Shown piece after piece: positions 15,924-25,790 of a stretch of DNA of 64,000 bases. The notes beneath the pieces are model-generated. The model was given only the letters and a program-made list of their open reading frames with translations, ran no database searches and was not told where the DNA came from. Position numbers and translations under genes: made by a program. Numbering within the stretch: position 1 is the stretch's first letter; each line of letters opens with the position of its first letter. The stretch comes from an uncultured Chloroflexia bacterium (lineage in GTDB: Bacteria; Chloroflexota; Limnocylindria; Limnocylindrales; CSP1-4): assembly GCA_963748625.1 (NCBI GenBank), contig CAVVJT010000010.1, forward strand, positions 1,056,001-1,120,000, given 5' to 3'.

Positions 15924-15972
15924 ATCGGACGTCCTTTCGTGAGGGATGCCCCACGGTTCCGGAGGTCCGAAG

Positions 15973-16014
15973 AATCACAAAGGCCGCGATCACCGTCGTG
16001 GTGTTCGCGGCCCC
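15973..16014 (-). terminator. Attenuator-type terminator in the dap leader
   Basis: Minus strand GGCCGCGA-ACACC-ACGAC-GGTG-ATCGCGGCC followed by TTTGTGATT. Confidence 0.7.
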
Positions 16015-16062
16015 TTCATCGCCTCCGGTCCCGGAGGCTCGGGTGTCGTCGCTCGCGCGCCG

Positions 16063-16143
16063 TCAGAGCCCCAGGGCCCGAGTCTTCCGACTGGGCCGCC
16101 AAGGCTTCCGCTTGGAATCGGCGACGAGGTGGATGTGCGTCAT
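16063..16143 (-). CDS. Putative Lys-containing leader peptide MTHIHLVADSKRKPWRPSRKTRALGL
   Basis: 26 codons with three AAG; CATACT -10-like hexamer upstream; precedes the terminator and dapB. Confidence 0.6.
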   Translation of the reverse strand: MTHIHLVADSKRKPWRPSRKTRALGL

Positions 16144-16191
16144 TGCGGGCGCAGTATGCCGTCGTCGCCTGAGATGTGCAAACATTTCATC

Positions 16192-16755
16192 GTGAGTAGG
16201 TTCTATGCATACGCGGTGACGGGCTCGATCCCGTCCGACTTCGGTCCGGTGCGGGTGGCCGCGACGAGTGCCGGGGTGGCGGCGGTTGAGCTGCTCGGTT
16301 CCGACGAGGGGTTCCCAGTCTGGCTTGCGCGACGGGGCGTGATCGTGGATCCCGGGGAAGCTGGCGAGCAGGCGGCAGCGCACCTTGAGGCGGTGGCGGA
16401 TGCCGTCGGGGAGCTGCTGGCGGGCGGGGATCCCGCGATGGATGCGATCCCCGTGGACGTCGGCGACCGCTCCGAGTGGGACCGGCTGGTCCTGGGTGCC
16501 GTGCGCGCGATCGCGCGCGGGACGACGGCGTCGTACGGGGAGGTGGCGCGATGGATCGGGCGACCTGGGGCGGCGCGGGCGGTGGGTGGCGCCGTGGGCC
16601 GGAACCCGGTGGGCCTGCTGATCCCCTGCCACCGCGTGATCGCGGGCGACGGGTCGCTGGGCGGGTACGGGGCCGCCTCGTGGGGCGGCATCGAGGCTGC
16701 GCTCGACCTCAAGCGGGCCCTCCTGGCACTCGAGGGTGTCGCGATCCGGCGCTGA
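16192..16755 (+). CDS. ogt: Methylated-DNA-protein-cysteine methyltransferase
   Basis: SYGEVA..AARAVG..NPV..IPCHRV. Confidence 0.9.
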   Translation: MSRFYAYAVTGSIPSDFGPVRVAATSAGVAAVELLGSDEGFPVWLARRGVIVDPGEAGEQAAAHLEAVADAVGELLAGGDPAMDAIPVDVGDRSEWDRLVLGAVRAIARGTTASYGEVARWIGRPGAARAVGGAVGRNPVGLLIPCHRVIAGDGSLGGYGAASWGGIEAALDLKRALLALEGVAIRR

Positions 16756-16883
16756 CGCGATGCCGGGTGTCGCCCAGCCGACACGCACCCTGTGCGAACG
16801 GGCATGCCGCACCCGGACAGCGCGACCGTACAGTCCGAGGCACATCGGATGGATGTGCAAGCGGCAGCGGCGGGAGGCCGGAG

Positions 16884-17372
16884 ATGGCGCAGAACGACCA
16901 GGATCAGGGTTTCGCGACCCGTCTGCCGGGGACCGGCGGGGACTTCATCGACAGCCAGGACGTCGAGGGGCACGGCCTCCGCCGGGATGACGAGGCCGAG
17001 GGCGCGGCCCGCCGCGACGCCGACGGTGACGGTGCGATCCGCCGCGACGACGACGTCGAGGGGCACGGCCTCCGCCGGGATGACGAGGCCGAGGGCGCGG
17101 CCCGCCGCGACGCCGACGGTGACGGCGCGATCCGCCGCGACGACGACGTCGAGGGGCACGGCCTCCGCCGGGATGACGAGGCCGAGGGCGCGGCCCGCCG
17201 CGACGCCGACGGTGACGGCGCGATCCGCCGCGACGACGACGTCGAGGGGCACGGCGCTCGAACGCCGTTCGCAGACGAAGGGGGTCCCGACGACCTCTAC
17301 ACCAGCCGTCCCGCCGGCCAGGGCGAGATCATCATGCGCGGCCCCAACGACAACCCGCACGGCGAGCGCTGA
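16884..17372 (+). CDS. DVEGH-repeat acidic polyprotein (candidate peptide precursor)
   Basis: GGGAGG RBS; three 31-aa units DVEGHGLRRDDEAEGAARRDADGDGAIRRDD plus a fourth DVEGHG. Confidence 0.8.
   Translation: MAQNDQDQGFATRLPGTGGDFIDSQDVEGHGLRRDDEAEGAARRDADGDGAIRRDDDVEGHGLRRDDEAEGAARRDADGDGAIRRDDDVEGHGLRRDDEAEGAARRDADGDGAIRRDDDVEGHGARTPFADEGGPDDLYTSRPAGQGEIIMRGPNDNPHGER
16959..17255 (+). repeat. 93-bp tandem repeat x3 plus partial copy
   Basis: Units start at 16959, 17052, 17145 and 17238. Confidence 0.95.
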
Positions 17373-17390
17373 TCCTCCTCCGCGCTCGAA

Positions 17391-17414
17391 CGGCCGGCCC
17401 GCAAGGGCCGGCCG
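17391..17414 (+). terminator. GCAA-loop hairpin after the DVEGH gene
   Basis: CGGCCGGCCC-GCAA-GGGCCGGCCG. Confidence 0.6.
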
Positions 17415-17622
17415 TCGTGCTGTCCGGCGCGACCCCGGCCCCCGCCTGTCACTGGTCGACAAGCCCACCGGGTACCGGACACCGGTGATCCCCCAGCCGG
17501 GGGGCGTTCGTGGCTCATGCATGCAGGACTCAACCCCCCGTTTGTCGATTCGGGGGTTGATCCACGAAAGCGAGCACCGGATTCGCCCCACGGCTGGGGC
17601 GCTGGGCTGGGGCGCCGGGATG

Positions 17623-18435
17623 CTAGCGGGCGTTGTCCGCGGTCGCCGCGAGGATGGCCTTCACCTCGAATGGCGAGATCCCGGGATGCGCCGCCCGGAT
17701 CAGGGCCGCGTACCCCGCGATGTGGGGCGCCGCGAAGCTGTTCCCCGTGACCACCATCCGGGTCCCCCCGCGCCATGCGACATCGACGTTGAGCCCGAAC
17801 GCCCCGAACTCCACGGGTGGCTGCGGGTTGTAGAGCCAGGCGTCGTGCGAGGCCATGTCATGAGCCGCCACCGACACGACCGACGAGAACAGCGACGGAT
17901 AGCTCGCGATCGCCACGTTGTTGGCCGCGGACACCAGGAGCAGGTTGCGGAAGTACGCCTCGTCGGCGAGCTCGTGGAGGACCGCGAAGAACGCGTCCGA
18001 CCGGGAGGAGAGCGACAGGTTCGCCACCGACGCCCCGGACGCCTCGATCGCCCACTGGATGCCTGTGGCGAACGCTCCCCCATTGCCCCGGTTGTCCGCA
18101 CCCAGGACCCGGATCGACACGATCTCCGCCTCAGGCGCGAGCGCGTGGATGATCCCTGCGCATGCCGTCCCATGACCGACGACGTCCACCGGAGCGGTCG
18201 GCACGACATCCCAGTCCTCGCCCCGCCGCTCCACGGCCACGGATTCCACCAGCCGGCCCCCCACGGCGGGATGAGCGGCCTCGACACCCGAGTCGATGAT
18301 CGCCACCCGTGCGCCGCGTCCACTGCCATCCCCGAAGGCCCACGCGCGGTCGATCCGGCCCCACGGCCCGTGCCGGCCGAGGGCCTCGCGGCGTCCGGCG
18401 CTGAACGGCTCGCTCCACGCGGGAAGGTCAGTCAC
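17623..18435 (-). CDS. S8 subtilase without signal peptide
   Basis: IIDSG, GHGTACAG and GNSFAAPH catalytic triad motifs. Confidence 0.92.
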   Translation of the reverse strand: MTDLPAWSEPFSAGRREALGRHGPWGRIDRAWAFGDGSGRGARVAIIDSGVEAAHPAVGGRLVESVAVERRGEDWDVVPTAPVDVVGHGTACAGIIHALAPEAEIVSIRVLGADNRGNGGAFATGIQWAIEASGASVANLSLSSRSDAFFAVLHELADEAYFRNLLLVSAANNVAIASYPSLFSSVVSVAAHDMASHDAWLYNPQPPVEFGAFGLNVDVAWRGGTRMVVTGNSFAAPHIAGYAALIRAAHPGISPFEVKAILAATADNAR

Positions 18436-19217
18436 CGGCGGAACGAGCGTGTCGCGGGCCGCGCCCCGCGCCGGGCGAGCGCGTCGAGGATGTCGATGAC
18501 CAGGGCGACCTGGTCCGGGGCGGCGGTGCGTGCCCGGGCGACGGCGTCCGCGAGCGCCCACAAGCGGGATCCCTCCTCGCCGTCGAGCGCTCCCGCAAGC
18601 TCCGCCACGGCCGCCTCGAGCGCTGCGGCGTCGGCATCCGGGTCGTCCGCCAGCTGGATCAGCGTCCGCCGCAGCAGCTCGGTCACGTCACGCTCCACGC
18701 GGCCGGCCCGGACGGCGACGGCAGCCTGGCGCGCGAACACCGACGCGACATCGAGCTCGCGGAGCCCGAAGCCCCCGTCGCCGCGGCGGTCGAGCACCTC
18801 GAGCACGCCGATGGAACCCGCGTCATCGAGGACGGGGACGGCCAGGATGGTGCGTGGGACGTAGCCCGTGCTCTCGGCCGTGGCCCGGTCGAACCGCGGA
18901 TCGGCCGTGACATCGCTCACCGCGAGCGGCTGGCCGGTGGTGAAGACGTAGCCCGCGATGCCCTCCGACGAGGCAAACGACAGGCCGACGGCCCCGGGAC
19001 CTGCCACGCCTGCGGCGACGCGGATGACCAGGCGATCGCTGGCGGGATCGTGGAGCGCGATCGACGCGGCCTCGGCGTCGAACAGCGTGACCGCCGCCTC
19101 CACCACCGAGGACAGCACGGCATCGCCTTGGGGCGGCTCAAGGCGGCCGACCGCGGCGGCCCGGGCCGCCACGGCCTCCATGGCGGCGACGATCGCCGGG
19201 TCACGCGGTGCGGTCAT
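18432..19217 (-). CDS. Stand-alone GAF-domain protein with helical C-terminus
   Basis: EGIAGYVFTTGQPL..DPRFD..TGYVPRTILAVP..GVLEVLDR. Confidence 0.88.
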   Translation of the reverse strand: MTAPRDPAIVAAMEAVAARAAAVGRLEPPQGDAVLSSVVEAAVTLFDAEAASIALHDPASDRLVIRVAAGVAGPGAVGLSFASSEGIAGYVFTTGQPLAVSDVTADPRFDRATAESTGYVPRTILAVPVLDDAGSIGVLEVLDRRGDGGFGLRELDVASVFARQAAVAVRAGRVERDVTELLRRTLIQLADDPDADAAALEAAVAELAGALDGEEGSRLWALADAVARARTAAPDQVALVIDILDALARRGARPATRSFRR

Positions 19218-19906
19218 CGGCCTGCCTCCAGGGTGAGCCGGCCCAGGTCCGGCACAACGAGACACTCGCGGTCGTAGCGGACCAGCCCCCGGGCGACGAA
19301 CTCCGCGAGGATCCGGTTGACCGACTCGCGCGAGCCGCCGACCATCCCGGCAAGCTCGGACTGGGTGTAACGGCGATCGAGCCGCGCACCGCCGTCCGCA
19401 TCCGCCGGGCCCGCGAGCGAGGCGATCTGCATAGCCAGGCGCTCGCGCATGTCGAGGAAGTGCATCGCCTCCACGTGACCCGTCAGCCGGCGCAGCTCGC
19501 GGGCGAGGGAGGCGACCAGCGCCCGCCAGAGGCCGGGCTCCCGCTCGAACAGGACCTCGAAGTCCACGCGTCCCAGGACCAGCGTCTCGACCGGCTCGAG
19601 CGTGATCACCGTGGCCGAGTGCGGCTCGCCATCGAGCATGGCCAGCTCGCCGAAGAAGTCCCCCGGCCCAAGCGTGGCCAGGATCGCCGGCTCGCCGGCG
19701 TCGGGCGAGGGCAGCACCACCTTGACCATCCCCGAGGCGATGACGAACAGTGCGTCGCCGGGGTCGCCCTGGTGGAAGATCGTCTGGTCACGCCGGAACC
19801 GGCGCAGGCGCATGCGCTCAACGCAGGCCGCAAGCGCGTCGTCACCCAGTCGCTCGAACAGCACGCACCGTGCAAGCGCGTCCCGTGCCAACCCCAAATC
19901 GACCAA
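19214..19906 (-). CDS. Crp/Fnr-family regulator
   Basis: IFHQGDPG, FFGELAMLDGEPHSAT, TQSELAGMVGGSRESVNR; TTG start after GGGGAG. Confidence 0.92.
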   Translation of the reverse strand: MVDLGLARDALARCVLFERLGDDALAACVERMRLRRFRRDQTIFHQGDPGDALFVIASGMVKVVLPSPDAGEPAILATLGPGDFFGELAMLDGEPHSATVITLEPVETLVLGRVDFEVLFEREPGLWRALVASLARELRRLTGHVEAMHFLDMRERLAMQIASLAGPADADGGARLDRRYTQSELAGMVGGSRESVNRILAEFVARGLVRYDRECLVVPDLGRLTLEAGR

Positions 19907-20069
19907 TCCGGTCTCCCCTGCGCGACAAGGCTGCCATCGTACCGATCCGCTCTCGTACACTCACGCCCAGTCCCGCTCCCCGGACCCGGTCCGGCGCATG
20001 CGCGGGACGCCCGAGGGATGGGGAGACGATGGACGACCGGCTGGCCACGATGTGGCGTCTGGAGATGGC

Positions 20070-21887
20070 GTGAGCACGGCTGCACCTCCGGCCAAGATCT
20101 CGTCGATGGCGGTGTTCCACCGGCGGGACTTCGTCCTGTTGTGGCTCGCTCAGCTGGTCTCCACCGCGGGGTCGGCGCTCACCGATCTCGCGGCCGGCAT
20201 CTTCGTCTACCAGATGACGGGCTCGGTGCTCGCGGTCGGCCTGACGCTCATGGCCACGGCGGTCCCGAGCCTGGTCGTGGGCCTCATCGCCGGTGTCTTC
20301 GTGGACCGCTACGACCGGCGCAAGGTCATGATCGCCAGCAACATCGGCCAGATGATCGTGGTCGCCACGATCCCGTTCATCATCGGCCCCACGCTCTGGC
20401 CGCTCTACGTCGCGATCCTGATCAATGCCGGCGTGAAGCAGTTCTTCGACCCGGCCTATGACGCGCTCATCCCGGACATCGCGTCCGACGAGGAACTGAC
20501 CGCCGCCAACGCGTTCCTCCAGATCGCCTCGTTCGGATCGACGGCCATCGGCTTCGCCGGCGCCGGCCTGCTGGCGTCGATCGACATCCGGCTCGCGTTC
20601 TTCATCGACGCACTCACCTTCGCGTTCTCGGCCCTCTGCATCTTCCTGATGAAGACCAAGGGCAGTGTCCCGGCACCCGAGGAGCCCACGTCGGTCGGGC
20701 TGGTCGTCCGGAACCTCAAGGAAGGCGTCAGGACGATCTTCCACACGCCGGTGATCCGCTCGCTGTTCCTGCTGGGCGCGCCAGTCTTCTTCTCCTTCGG
20801 CCTATGGAACGTCCTGCTCCTGCCGATGGCGATCGAGGTCCTCGGCGGCACCGAGTTCCAGTACGGGATCCAGGAGGGCCTCACCTCCATCGGCTTCGTC
20901 GCAGGCTCGCTGTTCATGGCCAAGTACGCCCCCAGGCTGCCCCTCGGCACGTGGATCTTCGTTGGCTCGGTGGGCATGGGCATCGCCGGGATCCTGTACG
21001 GCATGGCGACCAGCATCTGGGTGGGCATCATCTGGGTCACGCTGAGCGGGTTCTTCAACTCGCCCTCGGCCGTCGCCCGCTCGACGCTGCTCCAGCGCGC
21101 GACACCGCGCGAGATGCGCGGCCGCGTGTTCTCCGCGCTGTATGTCATGCGCGATGTGATCTTCCTGCTCGGCATGGCGGGCGCGGGCCTCGCGGAATAC
21201 CTCGATGTGCGGATGATGATCATCTTCGCCTCGGCGATCCTGGTGGTGGTGGGCCTGGTCGCCTTGGTCGCCCCCGGTATCGGCCGGCCGGCTGCCCAGT
21301 GGCGGCGCGGCCTCGTCGCGCTGCGGGCGTCGCGGGCAGGCGCCCTGGGCGAGGTCCGGCCGGCAACCATGGCGGACTTCGAGGTCCTCACCGGACGCCT
21401 CGCAACCTTCACCCGGCTCAGCCCGACCCAGCGGTCCGCATTCCTCAAGGACGCGATCGTCCGCGACGTGCCCGAGGGCGGCCGGATCGTGATGATCGGC
21501 GAGAAGGCGACCTCGGCGTACTTCATCCTCGAGGGCGAGGCTGTGGCCGGTGTGCCCGACGAGGCTGGCGGCTACCGAGTCCTGCGGACGATGCCCGCAG
21601 GCGACTTCTTCGGGGAGATCGCGGCGCTCACAGGGAGCCCCCGCACGGCGGATGTCGTGTCGGTCGTGCCGTCGTCCCTGCTGGAGGTGCCGGCCACGGC
21701 GCTGCGCGCCGTGATGGAGAACCCGGACGTCAACAAGCTCCTGCTCGACACGCTCAGCGAGCGCCTGAGCCGGACGAACTCCCCCGACCTGCCGCGGCTT
21801 GCCACGATGGACCAGGCGGCCCTGCGGGATCTGCGGACCGCGGCGCCCAGCGTCGAGCCGCTCCCGCGTGCCTATGACGCGGGCTAG
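20070..21887 (+). CDS. MFS transporter (DHA3/macrolide-efflux-like) fused to C-terminal cNMP-binding domain
   Basis: GVFVDRYDRRKVM MFS motif A, many TMs; GDFFGEIAALTGSPRTADV. Confidence 0.9.
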   Translation: MSTAAPPAKISSMAVFHRRDFVLLWLAQLVSTAGSALTDLAAGIFVYQMTGSVLAVGLTLMATAVPSLVVGLIAGVFVDRYDRRKVMIASNIGQMIVVATIPFIIGPTLWPLYVAILINAGVKQFFDPAYDALIPDIASDEELTAANAFLQIASFGSTAIGFAGAGLLASIDIRLAFFIDALTFAFSALCIFLMKTKGSVPAPEEPTSVGLVVRNLKEGVRTIFHTPVIRSLFLLGAPVFFSFGLWNVLLLPMAIEVLGGTEFQYGIQEGLTSIGFVAGSLFMAKYAPRLPLGTWIFVGSVGMGIAGILYGMATSIWVGIIWVTLSGFFNSPSAVARSTLLQRATPREMRGRVFSALYVMRDVIFLLGMAGAGLAEYLDVRMMIIFASAILVVVGLVALVAPGIGRPAAQWRRGLVALRASRAGALGEVRPATMADFEVLTGRLATFTRLSPTQRSAFLKDAIVRDVPEGGRIVMIGEKATSAYFILEGEAVAGVPDEAGGYRVLRTMPAGDFFGEIAALTGSPRTADVVSVVPSSLLEVPATALRAVMENPDVNKLLLDTLSERLSRTNSPDLPRLATMDQAALRDLRTAAPSVEPLPRAYDAG

Positions 21888-21893
21888 AGGAGG

Positions 21894-22563
21894 TCAGCCC
21901 CGCGGAACGGGCCGCATCGGGTAGACGCCCACCACCACGGGCGTCACCGGGTCGAGCGAGAGCTCGTAGCCCACGTCACCGCTGGCGAGCAGCTCGCCCA
22001 TGAGGCGGCCCTCCACCGGCGGCAGGCCGATGAACAGGGTGTGGGCGCCCACGCGGATCGGGGCGACCTCGTCGTCATCACCGACGATCCCGAACCGCCT
22101 GCGCAGCTCGTGCATGGGGATCCACGGCCGACTCTTGATGAAGCGGCGGAGCTGGGCGGTGGTGCAGGTCGGCCGGGACTCCGCTGCGGCGTCCGGCCGC
22201 TCGGCCTGCGCGGGACGGTCCGCGGGGCCGTCCGCGGGGCGGTCGCGGGCCGTCCGCGGGGCGGTCGATGGGGCGGCCTGACGCACGGTCCCCACGCTCC
22301 GGGGCGGCGCCCGCCGGCGACGGGGCGGCCGCCGGCGACGGTGCGGCCGGCCACGGCGCGGAGGTGACGGCAACCGGTGCCTGCACCGGCTCGTATGGGA
22401 TGACGCGTGCCGGCTGTTCCCCACCGAACGGTGCTCCGGGCAGCGACGCTCCGGTCATGCCCTCGGGCGGCGCATCGTTCGCGCCTGCCATCCCCTGGTC
22501 GCCGGCCGCGCCGGACTGCGGCCGCGGCCCATGGTGCCGGGGGTGCCGACTGCGCCTGCTCAT
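21894..22563 (-). CDS. Hypothetical protein: disordered N-terminus plus globular C-terminal domain; frameshift near 22250
   Basis: ORFs 22078..22563 and 21894..22424 join across a GACxGCCCCGCG repeat; TAQLRRFIKSRPWIPMHELRRRF. Confidence 0.6.
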
Positions 22564-22695
22564 CGGCGGGGGAAGCGCGAACGGGAGGTCCGCGCGGGGT
22601 GGAACGTCATCGTGAATCCCGTGGTGGATCGGCGGATTGTGCCTGGGCAGCGCCGATCGGCGGATGATACCCCTGCCACCCGGGGGGTGCCGCCG

Positions 22696-23865
22696 TCAGC
22701 CTCGGACGACCAGCAGGTCGCGCGGCACCTCGTTGAGCACCACTGGGCCGTCGTCACCACAGACAACGATGTCCTCGATCCGCGCCCCGTAGCGGCCCTC
22801 GAGGTAGATGCCGGGCTCCACGCTGAACGCCATGCCCTCGGCCATGCGCTCCCGGTTCCCGGCAACCATGTAGGGCTCCTCGTGCCCCTCCAGGCCGATG
22901 CCATGGCCCGTCCGGTGGAAGAACGCCTCGCCATACCCCGCATCGTCGATGAACGAGCGGGCCACCTGGTCCACGCGCTCGCAGGTGATGCCGGGCCGGA
23001 CGACGGCACTGGCCGCCGCCTGGGCGTGCTGGAGCACGCTGTAGAGGCGCAGGAACCCGGTGTCCGGGCCGGCCTCCGGATCGCCCCCGGTGACCCACAC
23101 GGTGCGGGTGATGTCCGAGCCGTAGCCGCCCAGCTGCCCGCCGATGTCGATCACGATCGGCTCACCCGCTGCGATCACGCGCTCGCCGGGGTCGTGGTGC
23201 GGCGAGGCGCTGTGGGGGCCGGACGCCACGATCCAGAACTCCGCGTGGTCATGGCCCTCGGCGACGAGGCGCTCGCGGACCTCGCGGGCGACGTCGGCTT
23301 CAGTGCGACCCACCAGCGGCCCGCCGGCGATCGCGAGGACCACCCGGTCGGCCGCCTGGGCTGCCGCCCGCAGCAGGGCGACCTCATCGGGGTCCTTGCG
23401 CATGCGCAGCGTCCGCAGCACCGTTGAGGCGACGGTAAACCGGGCAGCCGGCAGCACGCGCTGGAGCCCCAGGACGAATGCCGCGCGCATGCCGTCCGAG
23501 ACGGCGACAGCGCCCATGTCCCCTGCCGGCCGACCCACCGCCGCCTCCAGCAGCGAGGCCACCAGCAGCATCGGATCCTCGGTCTCCTCCCAGGTCGCAA
23601 CCGTCACGGCGCCGGCGACGGCTGCCGGGCATCCGCGCGCTGGCGCGGCCTCGAGCCTGGGGGCGACCAGCGTGACGGCCGTGGCGTCTCGCGCCGGGAC
23701 CACGAGGAGCGTCAGGCGCTCCAGGGGCGATGCCTCGTAACCGGACAGGTAGCGGAGGTCCGCGCCGACGCCAACCAGCAGCGCGTCCAGACCGGCCGCT
23801 GCGGCAGCCTGGCGGGCCGCGGCGAGCCGGGCCGCATAGCGCTCCTGCGGGATTCCGAGGGTCAT
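22696..23865 (-). CDS. Xaa-Pro aminopeptidase (M24)
   Basis: SDITRT, HRTGHGIG, FSVEPGIY and ARIED motifs. Confidence 0.92.
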   Translation of the reverse strand: MTLGIPQERYAARLAAARQAAAAAGLDALLVGVGADLRYLSGYEASPLERLTLLVVPARDATAVTLVAPRLEAAPARGCPAAVAGAVTVATWEETEDPMLLVASLLEAAVGRPAGDMGAVAVSDGMRAAFVLGLQRVLPAARFTVASTVLRTLRMRKDPDEVALLRAAAQAADRVVLAIAGGPLVGRTEADVAREVRERLVAEGHDHAEFWIVASGPHSASPHHDPGERVIAAGEPIVIDIGGQLGGYGSDITRTVWVTGGDPEAGPDTGFLRLYSVLQHAQAAASAVVRPGITCERVDQVARSFIDDAGYGEAFFHRTGHGIGLEGHEEPYMVAGNRERMAEGMAFSVEPGIYLEGRYGARIEDIVVCGDDGPVVLNEVPRDLLVVRG

Positions 23866-24257
23866 CGTGTCTCCTCCGTGGCAGGGACGAGGGTGGCGAT
23901 CCAGGCGCCGAGGTCACGGTCACCGTGCTCGAACAGCGCTCGATAGGCGAAGACCTGGGCGGCTCCGGCAGCCTTCGCAGCGCGACGGACCTCGATGTCG
24001 TCGTGCTGGCCGACCGCGATGACGGGCACGCCGGACGCTGCCGCCACGCCGAGCGCGGTCACGCCGTCGTAGGCCCGCGCCGTCAGGTCCACGATGCACC
24101 CGGCGGCCCCCTCGAGCGAGGCGAGGAGCGCGGCGGCCGAACGCACGGGCACGGGCACCCCACCCGTGCGCCGGACCGTATCGGCCAGGCGGGTGGCCCA
24201 GATCAGGTCGTCGGCCAGGATGGCGATCCGCGGAGCGGCGTCTGGCTCCGCCGTCAC
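23862..24257 (-). CDS. Atypical single-domain receiver-like protein
   Basis: ILADDL..IVDL..AAKAAGA fold pattern. Confidence 0.65.
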   Translation of the reverse strand: MTAEPDAAPRIAILADDLIWATRLADTVRRTGGVPVPVRSAAALLASLEGAAGCIVDLTARAYDGVTALGVAAASGVPVIAVGQHDDIEVRRAAKAAGAAQVFAYRALFEHGDRDLGAWIATLVPATEETR

Positions 24258-24754
24258 CCGAGCCCGGCGACGAGGTGGCGGAAGACGTCCGCCGCGGCCA
24301 CCACGCCGATGGGCTTGCCATCCTCCACGATCGGGATGTGGCGGAACCCGCCGACGGCCATCTTGTGGATCGCCACCGCGAGCGTGTCGTCGTGGCGCAG
24401 GACCACTGGGTCGGGGGTCATGAAGTCCTCCACCCGGTAGAGCTGGAGGCGCTTGTCGGCAGCCTTCACCACGGCGTCGCGGTCGGTGAAGATGCCCACC
24501 AGGTGGCCCTCCTCCACCACGAGCAGGCAGTCCGAGCCGTCCTCGTGCATGCGGCGGATGGCATCCGCGACGGGAAGGTCCCGTTCCACGGCCTTGGGCG
24601 ATCCGATCCCGAGCGCGTCGATGTGGTCACCCAGGAGGGCGTCGTTGTAGTCGATCGCCGAGCGGGTGGTATCCGAGGTGGCGAGGTCCGCGCCGCAGTT
24701 CTCGCAGGTGTCCTCGCCCTCGAAGTTGTCGGTGTGGCAGACGGGGCACAGCAT
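24254..24754 (-). CDS. Zinc-ribbon + CBS-pair protein
   Basis: CPVC..CENC; GIFTDRD; FMTPDP; GFRHIPIV. Confidence 0.88.
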   Translation of the reverse strand: MLCPVCHTDNFEGEDTCENCGADLATSDTTRSAIDYNDALLGDHIDALGIGSPKAVERDLPVADAIRRMHEDGSDCLLVVEEGHLVGIFTDRDAVVKAADKRLQLYRVEDFMTPDPVVLRHDDTLAVAIHKMAVGGFRHIPIVEDGKPIGVVAAADVFRHLVAGLG

Positions 24755-24758
24755 GTGT

Positions 24759-25790
24759 CTACTCCACCGTCCAGGTCTCGCCGGCCAGCAGGAGCTTCGC
24801 GAGGTCGCCCTCGCCATGCAGCTCCCGGGCCTGCTCGATCTGGGCGTCAACGAGGTCGTTGTGGGTGGGCCGCTGCACCTGGCGCAGGACGCCCACGGGG
24901 ACGGGGTACTCCGGCCAGAACATCCGCGAGAGGATCAGCGCGTAGTACGGGTCCTCGGCGTGCTGGTCATGGACCAGCAGGTCGTCCTCGGTGATCCCGT
25001 TCTCGCCGATCGTGACGACCTCCGGGTGGAGGCCGTTGAGGCGGATGCCCTTGTCGCGGTTCTTGCCGAAGACAAGCGGCTTGCCGTGCTCCAGGACCAG
25101 CATCCGGTCATCGCGGACATCACGCTCGGTGAACTCCCGCCACGCGCCGTCGTTGAAGATGTTGCAGTTCTGGAGGATCTCGACGAAGGCGGCGCCGCGG
25201 TGGTGGCCGGCGGCCTCGAGGGTGTGCTGCATGTGCTCGGTGTGGGTGTCCACGGTCCGGGCGACGAACGTGGCCTCTGCGGCGATCGCCATCGTCAGGG
25301 GCAGGATCGGCCGGTCCACGGAGCCCATAGGGGTGGACTTCGTCCGCTTGCCGAACTCCGAGGTGGGCGACGTCTGGCCCTTGGTGAGGCCATAGATCCG
25401 GTTGTTGTGCATGAGCATGGTGAAGTCCACGTTCCGGCGCATCGAGTGCAGGAAGTGGTTGCCACCGATGGACAGCGCGTCGCCGTCACCGGTGATCACC
25501 CAGACCATGAGGTCCGGCCGGGCCAGCTTGAGCCCGGTCGCGAGCGTGGGCGCGCGGCCGTGGATCGAGTGGAAGCCGTAGGTGTTCATGTAGTACGGCA
25601 GGCGCCCGGAGCAGCCGATGCCGGAGATGAAGACGATGTTCTCCTTCGGCACGCCGAAGTCGGGCATCACCTTCTGCGTCTGGGCCAGGATCGAGTAGTC
25701 CCCGCAGCCGGGGCACCACCGGACCTCCTGCTCCGCGACGAAGTCCTTGCGGGTCAGCTTGATGGGGGCGGTGTCGAGCGTCTCGGTCAT
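24759..25790 (-). CDS. korB: 2-oxoacid:ferredoxin oxidoreductase beta subunit
   Basis: WCPGCGD, GIGCS, GDGDALSIGGNH and YGLTKGQ motifs. Confidence 0.93.
   Translation of the reverse strand: MTETLDTAPIKLTRKDFVAEQEVRWCPGCGDYSILAQTQKVMPDFGVPKENIVFISGIGCSGRLPYYMNTYGFHSIHGRAPTLATGLKLARPDLMVWVITGDGDALSIGGNHFLHSMRRNVDFTMLMHNNRIYGLTKGQTSPTSEFGKRTKSTPMGSVDRPILPLTMAIAAEATFVARTVDTHTEHMQHTLEAAGHHRGAAFVEILQNCNIFNDGAWREFTERDVRDDRMLVLEHGKPLVFGKNRDKGIRLNGLHPEVVTIGENGITEDDLLVHDQHAEDPYYALILSRMFWPEYPVPVGVLRQVQRPTHNDLVDAQIEQARELHGEGDLAKLLLAGETWTVE

Follow-up and report, generated by a model that had tools for sequence, protein, structure and literature searches.

Gene content and organization of the locus

The stretch analysed here (the window) comprises 64,000 nucleotides of contig CAVVJT010000010.1 from a soil or freshwater Chloroflexota bacterium, and the locus in question encodes a repeat protein with four copies of the pentapeptide DVEGH, an S8-family subtilase, a GAF-domain protein, a Crp/FNR-family regulator and a major facilitator superfamily (MFS) transporter fused to a cyclic nucleotide (cNMP)-binding domain. 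The host genome is 4.6 Mb in size with 73% G+C, and deposits of its relatives are labelled uncultured Chloroflexia or Candidatus Limnocylindrales. An initial annotation had proposed that the subtilase cuts the repeat protein at Arg-Arg pairs into short acidic peptides, in the manner of prohormone processing. Its observations were confirmed and its interpretation stood in part: the linkage of the genes held, whereas the Arg-Arg boundaries did not.

The repeat-protein gene (16884..17372, forward strand) has an uninterrupted translation of 162 amino acids (aa), and a Shine-Dalgarno-like GGGAGG precedes its ATG. Its G+C content by codon position (0.87/0.51/0.90) resembles that of neighbouring genes; an antisense open reading frame (ORF) overlapping it (0.71/0.68/0.83) lacks the pattern of a real gene. 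No hydrophobic N-terminal stretch could be read from the translation, and the product appears to be a signal-less, probably disordered precursor. A 93-bp unit repeated 3.2 times in tandem, with a decayed 30-bp sub-unit, occupies 16959..17255 on the same strand (Tandem Repeats Finder: period 93 bp at 99% matches, 30-bp sub-period at 71%), and the three full copies differ by 0–1 base, in agreement with the signal-less ORF with three 93-bp repeats described earlier. DVEGH lies at residues 26–30, 57–61, 88–92 and 119–123, 31 residues apart. Arg-Arg occurs nine times (residues 33, 43, 53, 64, 74, 84, 95, 105 and 115), and each 93-bp unit encodes three short acidic stretches with Arg-Arg at their borders, a reading of the sequence that the translation bore out. 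No other ORF in the 4.6-Mb genome contains two or more D[VT]EGH motifs. The repeat protein matched no Pfam or NCBIfam family above cut-off; a hit to Pfam RDM3_C (20.4 bits against a cut-off of 35) was taken as compositional. The best scores of an ESM Atlas search (0.86–0.87) were under the level that counts, and predicted complexes of the S8, GAF and repeat proteins scored 0.00 in two runs without controls and were used as evidence neither way. Among sequencing runs, a look-up listed no RNA entry and ten DNA entries with small shares (0.05–0.14).

The repeat gene converges on three genes of the reverse strand. The first gene of this operon (19214..19960) encodes the Crp/FNR-family regulator, with a cNMP-binding domain followed by HTH_Crp_2 (PF00027, 91.1 bits; PF13545, 51.9 bits); since it scored 88 against a cut-off of 266 with the CRP equivalog model, the assignment is at family level only. 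It is followed by the GAF-domain gene (18432..19217; 261 aa, PF01590 and PF13185) and the S8 subtilase gene (17623..18435; 270 aa, PF00082 at 92.6 bits against a gathering score of 21.8). Before refinement of the starts, the ORF bounds were 18432–19265 for GAF and 17623–18561 for S8. The S8 start was set to GTG 18435 because the conserved N-terminus of the orthologues begins there and public calls of close relatives are 270–271 aa long; it overlaps the GAF stop as GTGA, and the GAF start, refined to ATG 19217, overlaps the crp stop as ATGA. These overlaps indicate that crp, GAF and S8 are translationally coupled, as had been proposed. Divergent from crp, as the gene positions and Pfam both confirm, is the MFS transporter with its C-terminal cNMP-binding domain (20034..21887, forward strand; MFS_1/MFS_3 and cNMP_binding at 113.6, 84.2 and 55.8 bits). 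Either ATG 20034 or the Met at 20142 may be its start, and among NCBIfam models it matched TIGR00900 at 197 bits, with weaker matches to EntS and to a ryptide exporter.

The S8 protein is read as a cytoplasmic subtilase. Its catalytic D48, H88 and S233 and oxyanion N173 are invariant in 41 aligned orthologues and it has no hydrophobic N-terminal stretch, which upholds the earlier description of an intact triad without a signal peptide. Its closest solved relatives are mature subtilisins (E 4e-23), the triad and Asn aligning to those of subtilisin BL and BPN'. This alignment begins at about residue 20 of the 270-aa form, indicating that an I9 propeptide is lacking. PF00082 is the sole domain in the 270 aa, with neither a P-domain nor a secretory signal. 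Apparent GAF–S8 fusions (open frames of 529–570 aa) were rejected as alternative-frame artefacts of G+C-rich DNA without GAF sequence.

Conservation of the motif among repeat proteins

A word-indexed protein search recovered 63 relatives of the repeat protein, an exhaustive search of representatives with its profile, which captures mainly the genus-type family, gave 104 clusters at E≤0.001, and a search for shorter relatives gave ten hits. An alignment of 20 relatives shows no variation in PGTGGD near the N-terminus, in the first or the last DVEGH, or in NPHG.R at the C-terminal end, and a variable middle; the best-conserved part within the genus is the C-terminal 39-mer. Among 156 different contexts of the motif, taken from 50 ORFs, the first motif position is D in 93% and the second V in 62% or T in 37%. 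The three preceding positions are D in 68%, 58% and 43% (−1, −2 and −3), and the residue following the His is variable. The E, G and H of these contexts were fixed by the search pattern, yet none of them varies in the 20-relative alignment, which is independent of that pattern. S or Q may stand for the motif E, giving a conserved form [DE]-[VT]-[EQS]-G-H. Each protein holds two to seven copies; in the short repeat proteins neighbouring copies are separated by 12–57 aa, save for outliers at 70 and 214 aa.

The Arg-Arg pairs are not conserved in this way. Among 57 distinct multi-motif relatives, Arg-Arg is found in any spacer in 10 and in every spacer in 5, and a dibasic pair of any kind in every spacer in 21. 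The Kex2/furin-like boundaries suggested at first are thus not supported, since poor conservation of Arg-Arg was the very observation that the initial annotation had named as refuting them.

Linkage of the repeat gene with the GAF–S8 pair

Motif-bearing ORFs and S8 genes were compared at three ranges, namely the genus, the class (301 genomes) and the phylum (401 genomes); individual loci, families and genomes are denoted below by L, f and G numbers where needed. Within the genus, S8 orthologues of at least 71% identity were found in 12 of 24 relatives, and the repeat gene adjoins S8 in all 12. The order dapA-dapB-ogt-repeat-S8-GAF-MFS-hyp-M24 is syntenic there, extending to a CBS gene; since the whole neighbourhood may be inherited order, genus-level co-occurrence is not independent evidence. 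A reverse search of genome contigs gave eight syntenic genus loci, all close kin, with MFS in 8/8 and crp in 1/8, so that crp is not a constant member of the locus within the genus.

At wider ranges the genes remain together in other arrangements. The class-wide search with the repeat-protein profile matched 23/301 genomes, in families f1 and f4, and returned 20 loci, one of which (L040, from the unpublished genome G156) shifts the counts by one and no conclusion if omitted. At least one of crp, GAF and S8 lies within 1.5 kb of the small ORF in 20/20 of these loci and GAF and/or S8 in 19/20; the small ORFs have unrelated spacers and the same motif. The orders include crp-repeat-GAF-S8 on one strand, hyp-repeat-crp-GAF, and a repeat gene convergent on S8. 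In the phylum, S8 orthologues at E≤1e-30 are present in 45/401 genomes of many families, a count that includes the unpublished genome G453, whose locus sequence was not taken in. GAF adjoins S8 in 28/29 narrow loci, the exception being a truncated contig, and in 20/20 wide loci. Outside the class, multi-motif ORFs usually lie right after crp (L097, L101, L102, L103, L106, L109, L116 and L121). The strict pattern, [DE][VT][EQS]G[HYF] in an ORF of 25–260 aa with coding-like G+C at third codon positions, was found in 27/40 wide GAF–S8 loci, two pairs of which share a genome (G397, G413), compared with 2/300 random 12.8-kb windows of the host genome. The co-occurrence of small D[VT]EGH ORFs with S8/GAF homologues, proposed as a check, was therefore borne out. 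Exporters with a cNMP domain recur beside the pair as MFS or, in other families, ABC proteins. Repeat protein, GAF, S8, Crp-type regulator and cNMP-domain exporter thus form a conserved module whose gene order varies between lineages. The S8 of this module is abundant in environmental data, with relatives at E≤1e-40 in no fewer than 7,424 clusters (90% identity).

Leader–core junctions in distant GAF–S8 loci

Distant loci whose S8 proteins are 45–55% identical to that of the window hold single-core precursors, and in 15 such ORFs from 11 loci the motif, as [DE]-[VT]-[EQSA]-G-[HYF], stands where leader and core meet. L100 has an 84-aa ORF in which an NHLP-like leader meets a core rich in Cys, Ser and Thr at DVEGY; immediately downstream of it comes the gene of a class IV lanthionine synthetase (LanL, 707.6 bits; cut-off 650), and the two converge on MFS-GAF-S8. 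An EVSGY-junction precursor in L095 neighbours four genes that share one strand, namely a LanL-like gene (474.6 bits, short of the 650 cut-off), GAF, S8 and MFS; L098 has the same precursor with GAF, S8 and MFS. The order in L092 is EVAGY precursor, ABC exporter with a cNMP domain, GAF and S8. In each of L090, L091, L093, L099 and L107 there are one to three precursors whose leader is conserved and whose core varies and is rich in aromatic residues; all eight that were aligned have V-Q-G at the junction, followed by Y or F. The L094 precursor, with a DVQGY junction, passes the NCBIfam 'aroma-sacti' leader model for peptides that are made ribosomally and modified after translation (RiPPs; 61.3 bits against 30), and L108 contains a LanC-like fragment. 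Judging from these sequences, the motif marks the leader–core junction, and its hydrophobic P4, small P2 and aromatic or His P1 have the properties of a subtilase cleavage site.

We also considered a cut between the motif V and E, which would expose an N-terminal X-X-His Cu/Ni site (ATCUN). A β-branched P1 fits subtilases poorly, and Y or F replaces H in the single-core relatives; the idea was dropped for these two reasons.

Upstream box and cyclic-nucleotide context

A CRP/FNR-type palindrome, TGTCG-N6-CGACA (TGTCGCCCAGCCGACA; 16768..16783), lies 116 nt 5' of the repeat-gene ATG. It is the sole TGTS-N8-SACA match in the window, where 2.8 would be expected by chance, and a single match therefore carries no weight by count alone. 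What gives it weight is its conservation upstream of repeat genes: a TGTC[GA]-N6-[CT]GACA box with free N6 precedes 33 of 40 distinct DVEGH-type ORFs including the window gene, all 33 in families f1 and f4, at distances of 47–214 nt, mostly about 90–145. The box is kept in genus loci without crp, whose genomes hold a Crp paralogue of about 50% identity elsewhere; the host genome likewise has one, 52% identical to the Crp of the locus. The same pattern occurs four times in the 4.6-Mb genome, where composition alone would predict about 8 occurrences, and the other three sites (G000 C4:241917, C7:201406 and C8:125106) may share a regulon with the repeat gene. One of them, situated between Mrp/ApbC-like and PotA-like ABC genes, has the Crp paralogue at a distance of about 1.5 kb, and another has two Flp-type pilin-like genes some 500 bp away, these gene identities being N-terminal readings only. 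No CRP-type palindrome was found between crp and the MFS gene, where the only palindrome is a 20-nt G+C-rich one of non-CRP type (19989–20008).

The AlphaFold2 model of the GAF protein (mean confidence, pLDDT, 79.8) shows a helix at the N-terminus, then the GAF domain and, over the C-terminal 90 aa or so, four or five further helices. The top two Foldseek matches are to an HD-GYP phosphodiesterase, and the ten best include the Lcd1 GAF with cAMP and the GAFs of PDE2A, CyaB2 and PDE10A, with heme-type and other GAFs close behind. cNMP domains also recur around the GAF–S8 pair, on MFS or ABC exporters. Two genes for cyclase-containing proteins adjoin the module in other genomes, a response-regulator–cyclase fusion followed by a histidine kinase in L104 (4073–5221, reverse strand) and a cyclase–NB-ARC–TPR protein in L098 (8521–11199, forward strand).

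Other features of the locus and its relatives

Between the convergent repeat and S8 genes, a G+C-rich hairpin with a 10-bp stem and a GCAA loop (17391..17414) is a possible terminator candidate without a T tract; the region 17370–17440 folds at −38 kcal/mol (z −2.56), and a scan of 16650–17700 for consensus promoters and terminators found nothing. On the reverse strand, an ORF at 21894–22424 without a Pfam or NCBIfam match has a conserved C-terminal portion of about 95 aa; its N-terminal half is rich in Pro and Arg and contains short tandem repeats (22209–22361), so that the true start is probably later. The conserved portion accompanies the module in f1 at varying positions, directly upstream of the repeat gene in L035–L037 and L047 and beside crp in L110 and L122.

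In f4, a larger protein, encoded immediately downstream of S8 and on the strand opposite to it, bears two or three DVEGH-type motifs in its N-terminal part, followed by a hydrophobic helix and a Q/A-rich tail (L066 602–1363, L067 2–1303, L073 2–1414, L074 537–1427, L114 5240–5863 and L115 5193–5927), and could be a second S8 substrate, possibly an anti-sigma-like membrane protein. A YcaO–TfuA fusion lies about 2 kb from the GAF-S8-crp set of the f18 genome locus L105 (9030–11951, reverse strand), in which no motif ORF was found, and a SLATT-domain protein (a two-transmembrane effector linked to SMODS and SLOG) is encoded next to precursor-GAF-S8-ABC in L099, from an f34 genome (3748–5058, reverse strand). 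L023, from a record titled uncultured beta proteobacterium, shows complete synteny with the Chloroflexota loci, and the label of that record looks wrong; its assembly is frameshifted, with MFS, M24 and dapA matching in broken pieces.

Proposed mechanism and alternative explanations

Given this gene content, we favour with modest confidence the explanation that the repeat protein is a multi-cassette precursor under Crp-family control, cut after each DVEGH by the cytoplasmic, GAF-partnered S8 protease and exported by the pump. The Crp-family regulator would set transcription of the repeat gene at the TGTCG-N6-CGACA box, and the propeptide-less S8 would be made by translational coupling with the GAF protein. 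We infer that cleavage follows the His of every D-V-E-G-H, with D/E at P5, V/T at P4, E/Q/S at P3, G at P2 and H at P1 (Y or F in other lineages), which would yield a leader (residues 1–30), three identical 31-mers (31–123) and a C-terminal 39-mer (124–162). By analogy, the 39-mer would be the product-like part, with the 31-mers as further products or spacers. The GAF protein would probably gate or recruit the protease on binding a small ligand, possibly a cyclic nucleotide, and the MFS-cNMP pump would probably export the products. An S8 enzyme acting on the repeat protein is accordingly retained from the initial annotation as the best reading, with the cut moved from Arg-Arg to the DVEGH-type motif.

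A broader version of this scheme, which we advance tentatively as a possibility somewhat short of an even chance, treats GAF–S8 as a cytoplasmic leader-peptidase cassette of general use in Chloroflexota, ligand-gated (probably by cAMP), with a portable [DE]-[VT]-[EQS]-G-[HY] site, which serves many unrelated precursor classes and combines polyprotein dicing with cNMP-gated export. Class IV lanthipeptides and aromatic-rich and NHLP-like precursors would be among its substrates, and unmodified polyproteins of Limnocylindria-type bacteria would be cut into short linear peptides in many copies.

Several observations weigh against the proposed mechanism. No modifying enzyme was found by Pfam among the ORFs scanned at 15946–24850, so that the products would be unmodified linear peptides, and the precursor leaders of the distant loci match NHLP-clan models only below cut-offs. 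The spacers between motifs are hypervariable and partly of low complexity, which is also compatible with mere linkers. According to the structure model, the likeness of the GAF protein to cAMP- and cGMP-binding GAFs is one of fold only. The box is missing from five out-of-class repeat genes and two in-class ORFs (n=40), and the strict-motif ORF was not found in 13/40 wide loci; these 13 comprise four with looser or missed forms (L092, L095, L097 and L098), five on contigs of at most 7.4 kb (L096 and L117–L120) and four others (L029, L105, L108 and L112). Kinship within genera and families means, moreover, that the locus counts overstate independence.

Some of the same features would suit a different role, in which the repeat protein would act as a regulator or decoy, disordered and multivalent, whose DVEGH copies dock several S8 molecules as pseudo-substrates, dock the GAF protein or bind metal through Asp, Glu and His, and regulated proteolysis would do no more than switch this protein off. 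The presence of two to seven copies at hypervariable spacing with often low-complexity spacers, the lack of a modifying enzyme, the His-rich spacers of some f18 relatives (L101, L116 and L121), the lack of a confident fold for the repeat protein (pLDDT below 50 as a complex partner) and the motif in the f4 membrane protein near S8 are all consistent with it. However, the single-motif relatives have a leader–motif–core layout, one of them beside a LanL synthetase, exporters recur beside the GAF–S8 pair, V/T and G equal the charged residues in conservation, and Y or F in place of H suits a protease P1 better than a metal ligand. We consider a regulator or decoy unlikely on balance.

Cutting at Arg-Arg in the manner of Kex2 or furin, which would release acidic peptides of 8–9 residues, appears very improbable. 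Every acidic stretch of that length in the window protein is indeed flanked by Arg-Arg, at nine sites; but close family members such as P0002 have no such pair, the rarity of Arg-Arg among the multi-motif relatives has been noted above, and the 270-aa S8 has nothing beyond its catalytic domain that resembles those enzymes. The 30-bp sub-period further suggests that the Arg-Arg-flanked stretches are decayed copies of one unit. The remaining explanation, that the genes are neighbours by descent and that S8 and GAF carry out housekeeping proteolysis unrelated to the repeat protein, would account for the synteny of the whole genus stretch as inherited order. It is hardly credible at wider ranges, where the linkage survives at least four gene orders across several families, motif ORFs are far more frequent in GAF–S8 loci than in background windows, and the S8 gene has a patchy distribution in the phylum, unlike that of a housekeeping gene.

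Relation to known systems and significance

Cleavage after each DVEGH would place the window S8 among cytoplasmic leader peptidases. A 2023 review (PMC10885120) describes ElxP as a cytoplasmic S8 protease recognizing D/E at −5, L/V at −4 and, after two further residues, Q at −1, the class III enzyme AmyP as using a (T/S/A)EVE motif and PatA-like enzymes as cutting after G(L/V)E(A/P)S; it stresses the tight control that a cytoplasmic leader peptidase needs, and the term GAF does not occur in its text. Like the LanP-type enzymes ElxP and AmyP as described there, the window S8 is signal-less and encoded beside precursor genes, with an acidic P5 and a hydrophobic (L/V-like) P4 in its putative site, and its distant orthologues adjoin LanL-type synthetases. 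Of the features by which LanP-type enzymes are recognized, a position beside precursor genes and a junction motif were found, and a co-located modifying enzyme was not. It differs in that its locus has no lanthionine synthetase, that P2 of the motif is G and P1 is H, Y or F, that a GAF partner gene always accompanies it, that its substrate here has four sites per chain, and that its sequence is nearest to true subtilisins rather than to solved LanP structures.

The cyanobactin protease PatA similarly cuts a multi-cassette precursor (PatE) after a short conserved site with L/V-E at P4–P3, and in both systems the recognition sequences are conserved and the cassettes between them hypervariable. 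However, the window S8 scored 17.6 bits against a cut-off of 421 with the PatA/PatG model TIGR03895, its locus lacks a heterocyclase, a PatG-type macrocyclase and an AYDG-like second site, and phylum and regulation differ. With Kex2, furin and the polyprotein precursors of yeast or animals the system shares one chain with repeated cassettes that an S8 protease would cut into many peptide copies, but not conserved dibasic sites, a P-domain or a secretory pathway, and its motif is acidic-V-E-G-H.

QhpE is a small cytoplasmic subtilisin-like protease that removes the leader during maturation of quinohemoprotein amine dehydrogenase. The window S8 matches its model NF049966 at E 5e-28, but at 97.9 against a cut-off of 165, and neither QhpC, QhpD nor the dehydrogenase was found among the locus ORFs scanned. 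Precursors beside distant GAF–S8 pairs resemble the NHLP clan and 'aroma-sacti' families, L094 passing NF045560 and L100, L095 and L092 matching NF038399 and TIGR03793 below cut-offs, whereas the window protein matches none of these models and has neither a Cys/Ser/Thr-rich nor an aromatic-rich core.

A literature search, with subscription journals outside its coverage, returned no paper describing the GAF–S8 pair or the DVEGH motif, in keeping with the initial statement that no pathway with this gene set had been described. Within the same coverage, DVQGY, DVEGY, EVQGY and DTEGH gave nothing relevant, and nothing was found on lanthipeptide leader peptidases or subtilisins joined with a GAF domain or on Chloroflexi RiPP precursors with cyclic nucleotide-binding and subtilisin proteins.

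If the proposed mechanism is correct, the GAF–S8 pair would provide a leader peptidase whose five-residue site is defined and could be used to mine Chloroflexota genomes for precursors, with the enzyme as a possible cleavage tool, and it would be the first such protease with an obligatory sensor-domain partner, bearing on how premature cutting is prevented. The four small soluble or membrane proteins involved would make a directly testable system. It would also be an instance of bacterial production of multi-copy, apparently unmodified peptides under cyclic-nucleotide-type control; and should the broader, more tentative version with a portable cassette also hold, the module could represent a bacterial equivalent of prohormone processing in which a second messenger acts as a checkpoint on the protease.

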